Virus record (IMG/VR): IMGVR_UViG_3300042256_000013 | Location: 1 to 64,000 of that record | Origin: a virus | Lineage: Duplodnaviria > Heunggongvirae > Uroviricota > Caudoviricetes | DNA: 64,000 bases | Reading direction: 5' to 3' (one strand) | In this document: one piece after another, positions 53,905 through 54,180 of the stretch | Position numbering within the stretch: position 1 is the stretch's first letter | Layout of the letters: each line of letters starts with the position of its first letter | Notes under the pieces: generated by a model | The model's database searches: none | Told to the model about the DNA's origin: nothing | What the model saw: the letters and a program-made list of their open reading frames with translations, nothing else | Program-made: the position numbers and the translations under genes

Positions 53905-54180
53905 TTAATCAGATGAACTTGAACCACTGTCTGATGAAGAACTATCTGAACTTGAAGAACTCCATGATGAACTTGAATCATCACTTGAAGAACTCCAGCG
54001 AGTAGAAGATGAACTGTCATCTACTGAGGTAGACTTACTGAATGATGTATCAGAATCAACTGATGTAGATTCAGTACTGATCGGTTCAGGCCTGGTAAAG
54101 TTTTAGTTACTTCTGCAATAGTACCAGCCACGCCAGTACTTACAATTTCAACTTCTTCACCAACATAAAATGCTGTCATA
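53905..54180 (-). pseudogene. frameshifted ORF: 27-aa N-terminus (MTAFYVGEEVEIVSTGVAGTIAEVTKT) joined to a Ser/Asp-rich tail only by a -1 shift
   Basis: Two overlapping reading frames, each under 60 aa; tail reads TSVDSDTSFSKSTSVDDSSSSTRWSSSSDDSSSSWSSSSSDSSSSDSGSSSSD. Confidence 0.35.

Follow-up and report, generated by a model that had tools for sequence, protein, structure and literature searches.

The locus analysed here, in a window of 64,000 nt of DNA, raises the question of why a short ORF is followed by an open, Ser/Asp-rich coding sequence that lies in a different frame: whether the two are linked by frameshifting, have been separated by a sequencing error, or are the remains of a decaying gene. 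On the minus strand, the ATG at 54179–54177 opens a 52-codon ORF (frame 0) that ends with a TAG stop at 54023–54021 and has the product MTAFYVGEEVEIVSTGVAGTIAEVTKTLPGLNRSVLNLHQLILIHHSVSLPQ. A Shine–Dalgarno-like AAGGA (54187..54191, minus strand) lies 7 nt upstream of this ATG, and the orthologs described below have GAGG at the same place. In the –1 frame, a TAA at 54105–54103 is followed by 65 open codons (54102..53908) and a further TAA at 53907–53905, and this tail frame (53905..54102 with its stop) encodes NFTRPEPISTESTSVDSDTSFSKSTSVDDSSSSTRWSSSSDDSSSSWSSSSSDSSSSDSGSSSSD. Of its 65 residues, 34 are Ser and 9 are Asp (66 %), and Ser and Asp make up 80 % of the last 45. The sequence-only reading from which this work started had identified both frames and quoted a Ser/Asp string that is present exactly, though its start position of 54180 is one base off and its estimate of about 55 residues for the tail falls short of the 65 codons found. 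It also held that the tail is unreachable without a change of frame and this was confirmed, as the tail frame contains no ATG, GTG or TTG; an independent start for the tail was rejected, only a poor ATC being available. The two frames overlap for 82 nt (54102..54021, minus strand), and the motif ACTAAAACTTTACC is found at 54107..54094. Approximately 11 % of all 65-codon windows in the six frames are stop-free, and most of these are real genes. A Ser/Asp-rich (at least 60 %) stretch of 30 residues occurs only once in the six frames of the 64 kb. The open Ser/Asp frame exceeds chance expectation.

A megablast search with positions 40000–64000 of the window found approximately 82 % identity over 65–73 % of the query to Erwinia phage Kaldavass (PQ464595, 366.6 kb) and to Xanthomonas phage XbC2 (OP292654, 367.9 kb, genus Mimasvirus), and the window comes from a Mimasvirus-like jumbo phage. 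[quoted passage not shown] When the region around the locus was used as the query, the sole match at the DNA level was the Ser/Asp region (query 674–855, corresponding to window positions ~54027..53846), which shares 89.9 % identity with XbC2 (E 5e-33) and 80.3 % with Kaldavass (E 1e-28). Gene order was compared with that in Kaldavass, XbC2, IMG/VR UViG_3300031414_000001 and the metagenomic contigs L005, L017 and L018. The shared order is a 177-aa gene, a 154–166-aa gene, a 144-aa gene, a gene here called gene X, a conserved promoter, an 81-aa gene (57 aa in L017) and a gene of approximately 235–238 aa. The two-frame locus occupies the syntenic slot of gene X, between the 144-aa gene, which is membrane-like, and the conserved promoter. 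This promoter (53859..53891, minus strand) lies just downstream of the tail stop and marks the end of the transcription unit holding the locus. It is a 12/12 match to the sigma-70 consensus (TTGACA-17-TATAAT) set in a CCCG...CGGG inverted repeat, and Kaldavass, XbC2, L017 and L018 all conserve it.

Gene X is represented by XbC2_529 (UYE98924.1) and Kaldavass CDS0127 (XPP59975.1), both hypothetical proteins. The sequence-only reading had proposed a comparison of orthologs, and in every relative found (13 sequences, 9 protein clusters) gene X is a single continuous ORF with the N-terminus and the Ser/Asp tail in the same frame; the two-frame layout was found in none of them. The product is 215 aa long in Kaldavass, the IMG/VR genome and L005, 206 aa in XbC2, 189 aa in L018 and 157 aa in L017. 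Nine family clusters of 157–215 aa, none of the nine split, were retrieved from among 5.8 billion proteins, and a tblastn search of 50,697 phage records with the non-repetitive 142 aa found the family in Kaldavass and XbC2 only. Family members consist of a conserved N-terminal segment of approximately 50 aa (consensus M..F.VG[DE]EVEV.STG..TIE.VTKNI.RQ.RYKI.GNSTK.KE.ELRR), a central helical segment with an invariant QVV...MDQ, and a Ser/Asp/Trp-rich tail. The AlphaFold2 prediction for one member (P0004, using a nine-sequence alignment) was poor, with a mean pLDDT of 47 and only the helix at residues 70–106 moderately confident. Neither Pfam nor PHROGs gave anything at or near threshold for the orthologs or for the repaired 91-aa sequence described below, the top matches below the cut-off being DUF1902 (E 0.007) and an SH3-like MSSS domain (E 0.1). 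The intact proteins (P0001–P0009) end in a long (S/D)n tail that is broken up by Trp or Arg (SSSDDSSSSW[R]), is predicted to be disordered, and varies in-frame in its number of repeats from phage to phage. With a helix between a short N-terminal domain and an (S/D)n-W tail, the family may merit study in its own right, apart from the frameshift question.

The relationship of the window to the intact family was established using pairwise and codon alignments, which replaced a MAFFT DNA alignment that had put the N-terminus of the window in the middle of the ortholog. Counting from the ATG, nt 1–79 of the window (ATG..ACTAAAA) align with nt 1–79 of the ortholog and nt 95–275 align with ortholog nt ~384–648. 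Codons 1–26 (54102..54179, minus strand; MTAFYVGEEVEIVSTGVAGTIAEVTK) are homologous to the ortholog N-terminus in both DNA and protein alignments with Kaldavass CDS0127, XbC2_529, IMG/VR locus L003 and P0002–P0009, and the tail frame is in turn a homolog of the Ser/Asp/Trp-rich C-terminus of the orthologs. The second half of the 52-aa ORF, comprising 26 codons (TLPGLNRSVLNLHQLILIHHSVSLPQ) and the TAG (54021..54101, minus strand), is out of frame and has no homolog in frame 0. In the pairwise alignment, about 304 nt of the Kaldavass gene correspond to 15 nt in the window, which is 289 nt (1 mod 3) shorter at this point. All other indels relative to Kaldavass (72+9+3 = 84 nt) fall in the repetitive tail, and each is a multiple of 3. 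The gene span that is left is 275 nt (2 mod 3), with the tail in the –1 frame, and the N-terminus and the tail do not share a frame. The deletion takes out approximately 96–100 codons, from midway through the N-terminal segment to the end of the central segment, and with them the invariant or near-invariant positions R33, L48, R49, R50, Q73, V74, M81, D82 and Q83. Only family residues 1–26 of the conserved N-terminal segment, about half of it, are retained, and the tail is shorter than in the orthologs and lacks the terminal Trp.

The sequence-only reading had placed the join of the two frames near an A-run and this proved apt. The run is A4 in the window (54101..54104, minus strand) and A5 in all six orthologs for which DNA is available, which read AC[TC] AAA AA[TC] ATC T.. 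where the window has ACT AAA ACT TT... Adding one A restores a continuous frame of 91 codons (..AEVTK NFTRPE PISTES..), and the repaired VTK-NFTRPE-PISTES, compared to VTK-NI[FWL]RQE...WEAPVSTES in the orthologs, keeps the family-invariant N27 and the near-invariant R30. On this comparison, the A4 run is most likely the site at which 1 nt was lost. The origin of the 15-nt junction (CTTTACCAGGCCTGA; 54086..54100, minus strand) is ambiguous. Read in the tail frame it gives FTRPE, against I[FWL]RQE in the orthologs, and it could derive from the 5′ flank in the tail register, from an IPE motif or from filler DNA. As the junction (13–15 nt) is far more diverged than its flanks, the A4 run is not proven to be the exact site of the loss.

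The synonymous and non-synonymous changes on each side of the junction were counted in the ancestral frame by the Nei–Gojobori method. For the tail (59 codons), dN/dS is 0.13–0.27 between the window and the orthologs and 0.13–0.14 among the orthologs, and for the N-terminus (26 codons) the corresponding values are 0.33–0.44 and 0.08–0.20. For the branch leading to the window, pairwise distances give a dN of roughly 0.10 and a dS of 0.31 in the tail, and a ratio at or above 1, from small numbers, in the N-terminal stub. A stop codon would be created in the tail frame by 35 of the 585 possible single-base changes, and the probability that none had appeared is 0.03 at a neutral divergence of approximately 0.3 and 0.3–0.56 at a divergence of 0.05–0.1. 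These figures suggest that coding constraint acted on the tail during most of the divergence since the lineages split and, because it is also still free of stops, the break looks recent. An open tail with more synonymous than non-synonymous change is also expected if translation has continued. No relative between 84 % and 100 % amino acid identity at the neighbouring 144-aa protein was found in IMG/VR, the JGI metagenomes, the GTDB genomes or the 5.8-billion-protein search, and hence the break cannot be dated, nor its tolerance over time demonstrated.

If the A4 run were a sequencing or assembly artefact and A5 the true sequence, the locus would be a continuous 91-codon ORF encoding a naturally shortened, possibly functional mini-version of the family. 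The sequence-only reading had listed an indel error among its options, and the lesion does fall on a homopolymer that has one more A in all of the orthologs, the frame, once repaired, matches the family well on either side of the lesion, and the length of family members varies naturally (157–215 aa). However, exact matches to the adjacent 144-aa and 139-aa proteins led to seven contigs from seven samples, assembled by two pipelines (JGI samples 3300042255, with a contig of 371,104 nt, 3300042207, 3300042262 and 3300042206; Logan samples SRR35174884, SRR35145680 and SRR35145732), and the 361-nt region and the surrounding 1.0–6.4 kb are identical in all of them, base for base. A random sequencing error is therefore unlikely, and short-read and HiFi data are not prone to confuse A4 with A5. 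The seven assemblies represent one clonal phage, probably from one study, and they test the accuracy of the sequence rather than its evolutionary persistence. The gene callers of both pipelines call the 52-aa ORF, and its product is present in a collection of 15 billion proteins, as a cluster of one member, while the repaired 91-aa product is absent from that collection. A screen for frame breaks over 45 kb relative to Kaldavass revealed no general excess of broken genes; the two other apparent frame changes that it flagged trace to a Kaldavass annotation that reaches too far and to a region that is probably non-coding. Taken together, an artefact is very improbable.

The frames could instead be joined by the ribosome. 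Programmed or fortuitous –1 frameshifting, either at T_TTA (54099–54096) in the P-site or near the A-run, would produce some 91-aa fusion alongside the 52-aa product, made up of the N-terminal 26–28 aa and the Ser/Asp tail and including the peptide ..AEVTKNFTRPEPISTESTSVDSDTSFSK... The intact RBS and ATG, a tail frame that is open for 65 codons with a dN/dS below 1 relative to the orthologs, and the 82-nt overlap are all compatible with this. A –1 shift is possible only within the overlap zone, where there is no X XXY YYZ heptamer. T_TTA (54096..54099, minus strand) is the only X_XXY tetramer in the zone and a permissible half-site, but it is a weak candidate, suited to P-site slippage only, and the next codon, CCA, cannot re-pair in the –1 frame (ACC). 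The A-run is phased AAA-A in frame 0, which permits +1 but not –1 re-pairing, and the +1 frame stops after five codons. The fold of the RNA downstream is not significant, with an MFE of –19.1 kcal/mol (z = –1.35; 21 of 200 shuffled sequences fold equally well), and its sole hairpin, in the centroid structure, begins approximately 19 nt after T_TTA, outside the 5–9 nt spacing of stimulatory elements. On reading the sequence, no SD-like stimulator (GGAGG-like) was seen upstream. Slippage during transcription, which takes a homopolymeric run of A or T of about 7–9 or more, was rejected, the longest run in the overlap zone being the A4 (54104–54101), which is far too short. Translational bypass of the T4 gene 60 type was also rejected, on reading the sequence, as with the CAG before the TAG as take-off the downstream CAG landing is in the wrong frame. 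None of the defining features of a programmed frameshift that can be sought in a sequence is present. Moreover, the single frame is the ancestral and universal state in the relatives and thus the two-frame layout is a lesion specific to this lineage, sitting atop the 96-codon deletion, and a recent break accounts for the open tail. The programmed frameshift or slippage product listed as one option by the sequence-only reading consequently finds no support, and we regard –1 frameshifting of any kind as most improbable. The 52-aa ORF might also be a new functional small protein, or the tail a 3′ UTR or RNA element of the operon, kept by selection. That the RBS and ATG are intact, that two gene callers report the ORF and that the remnant closes a transcription unit, with a strong promoter immediately behind it, fit such a role. 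Against it, the 26 C-terminal residues are former coding sequence read out of frame and without homologs, the protein cluster has one member, the 26 residues retained represent only about half of the conserved N-terminal segment, the N-terminal dN/dS is raised (0.33–0.44) and the RNA fold is not unusual; this possibility is improbable. Finally, the freshly deleted gene might have become a two-product locus de novo, in which low-level –1 slippage at T_TTA or the A-run appends an acidic Ser/Asp tail, maintained by selection, to a stub of 26–28 aa. Were this so, the locus would hold a frameshift site at its birth rather than a relic, but we lend the idea hardly any credence.

The explanation that we prefer, and consider very probable, is that the locus is a recently inactivated, internally deleted accessory gene of the XbC2_529/Kaldavass CDS0127 family. 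The option of a decaying gene, also raised by the sequence-only reading, is the one that the ortholog comparison supports, with about 100 codons deleted and the two halves out of frame. The middle of the gene (approximately 96 codons) was deleted in the lineage of the window phage, and this leaves the remaining halves 1 nt out of register, most simply through a change from A5 to A4 after codon 26. This could have occurred in two steps, an in-frame deletion of 288 nt joining ..CAA GAA C| to |CT GTT AGT.. at a GAA-C microhomology, and a later loss of 1 nt in or just after the A-run. One complex event is a possible alternative, given that divergence is far higher in the junction than on either side of it. 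Homology of the two halves, the deletion, the frame offset, the agreement of the assemblies and the lack of frameshift signals are direct results, and we infer the order and number of the mutational steps, that the break is recent and that function has been lost. Ribosomes starting at the ATG at 54179 would make the 52-aa product, with 26 native and 26 out-of-frame residues and, judging from the intact RBS and start codon, some product is probably still translated. The Ser/Asp tail would be an untranslated relic that has so far accumulated no stop codons. The appropriate annotation is that of a pseudogene, a remnant of this family with an internal deletion and a frameshift, and neither a 52-aa hypothetical protein nor a programmed frameshift. 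Inactivation would also mean that at least one Mimasvirus-like phage, recovered from several samples, can do without the family.

Several observations were made on the surrounding genes. The remnant, a lineage-specific loss, and a 139-aa gene (53406–53825, minus strand), a lineage-specific gain, flank the promoter at 53859–53891. The 139-aa gene is assigned to PF26820 (Phage_T4_Y00F) by a precomputed match and to phrog_1106 (E 2.6e-11), and is absent from Kaldavass, XbC2, IMG/VR L003, L005, L017 and L018. Its insertion point falls after the conserved promoter and ahead of the RBS of the 81-aa gene, and its last codons overlap that RBS, the conserved CTGGAGT. The promoter with its inverted repeat may resemble the promoter/stem-loop cassettes proposed for gene shuffling in T4-type phages, and a second perfect 12/12 sigma-70 consensus promoter is found at 55721–55748 (minus strand). 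Upstream of the remnant, a lineage-specific 79-aa ORF (56539–56778, minus strand) lies between the 227-aa and 101-aa genes, and has no counterpart in Kaldavass, L017 and L018, where these two genes adjoin. Like the 139-aa gene, it was missing from every relative examined.

The two other apparent frame changes relative to Kaldavass have separate explanations. At 57425–57546 (minus strand), the start of Kaldavass CDS0133 is over-extended across a divergent intergenic promoter (TTGACG-17-TATAAT), and the ORF at 57464..56781 in the window (227 aa) is likely to be the true gene. The region at 48990–49400 shares approximately 85 % DNA identity with Kaldavass CDS0116 ('hypothetical protein') and includes several indels that are not multiples of 3, with no shared ORF. 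A hairpin in this region is changed on both arms, from CCCCGC..GCGGGG in Kaldavass to CCTCTCC..GGAGGGG in the window, and the CDS annotation may in fact cover a structured non-coding RNA, though the region has no Rfam match at gathering or at E≤1. Nearby, at 48718–48831 (minus strand), a weak Rfam match to sroH falls below threshold, with 26.4 bits where the gathering score is 80 (E 4e-4), and is probably due to chance. Five tRNA genes (60135–61934, minus strand) are syntenic with the Ala/Met/Met/Lys/Cys tRNA cluster of Kaldavass.

Set against known systems, the remnant is close to the intact XbC2_529/Kaldavass CDS0127 family, with which it shares the syntenic slot, the first 26 codons and the Ser/Asp/Trp-rich tail (80–90 % identical in DNA), and from which it differs in lacking approximately 96 middle codons and in having its halves in different frames. 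With programmed –1 sites, such as those of E. coli dnaX, the phage tail chaperone genes G/GT and IS element transposases, it has in common the overlapping frames and a downstream frame without a start, but not the slippery heptamer, the correctly spaced structure or SD element, or the conserved arrangement. Frameshifted remnants in the plastic accessory-gene regions of T4-like and jumbo phages offer a further parallel. In both cases a small gene of unknown function has been inactivated by deletion and loss of frame, and it sits among other small early-type genes where neighbours come and go from lineage to lineage. Nothing substantive sets the present case apart from them, its Ser/Asp-rich composition alone making the relic conspicuous. 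It is an ordinary kind of event for the plastic small-gene regions of large phages, which matters little beyond annotation, and provides a small worked example of accessory-gene turnover beside a conserved promoter in jumbo phages.
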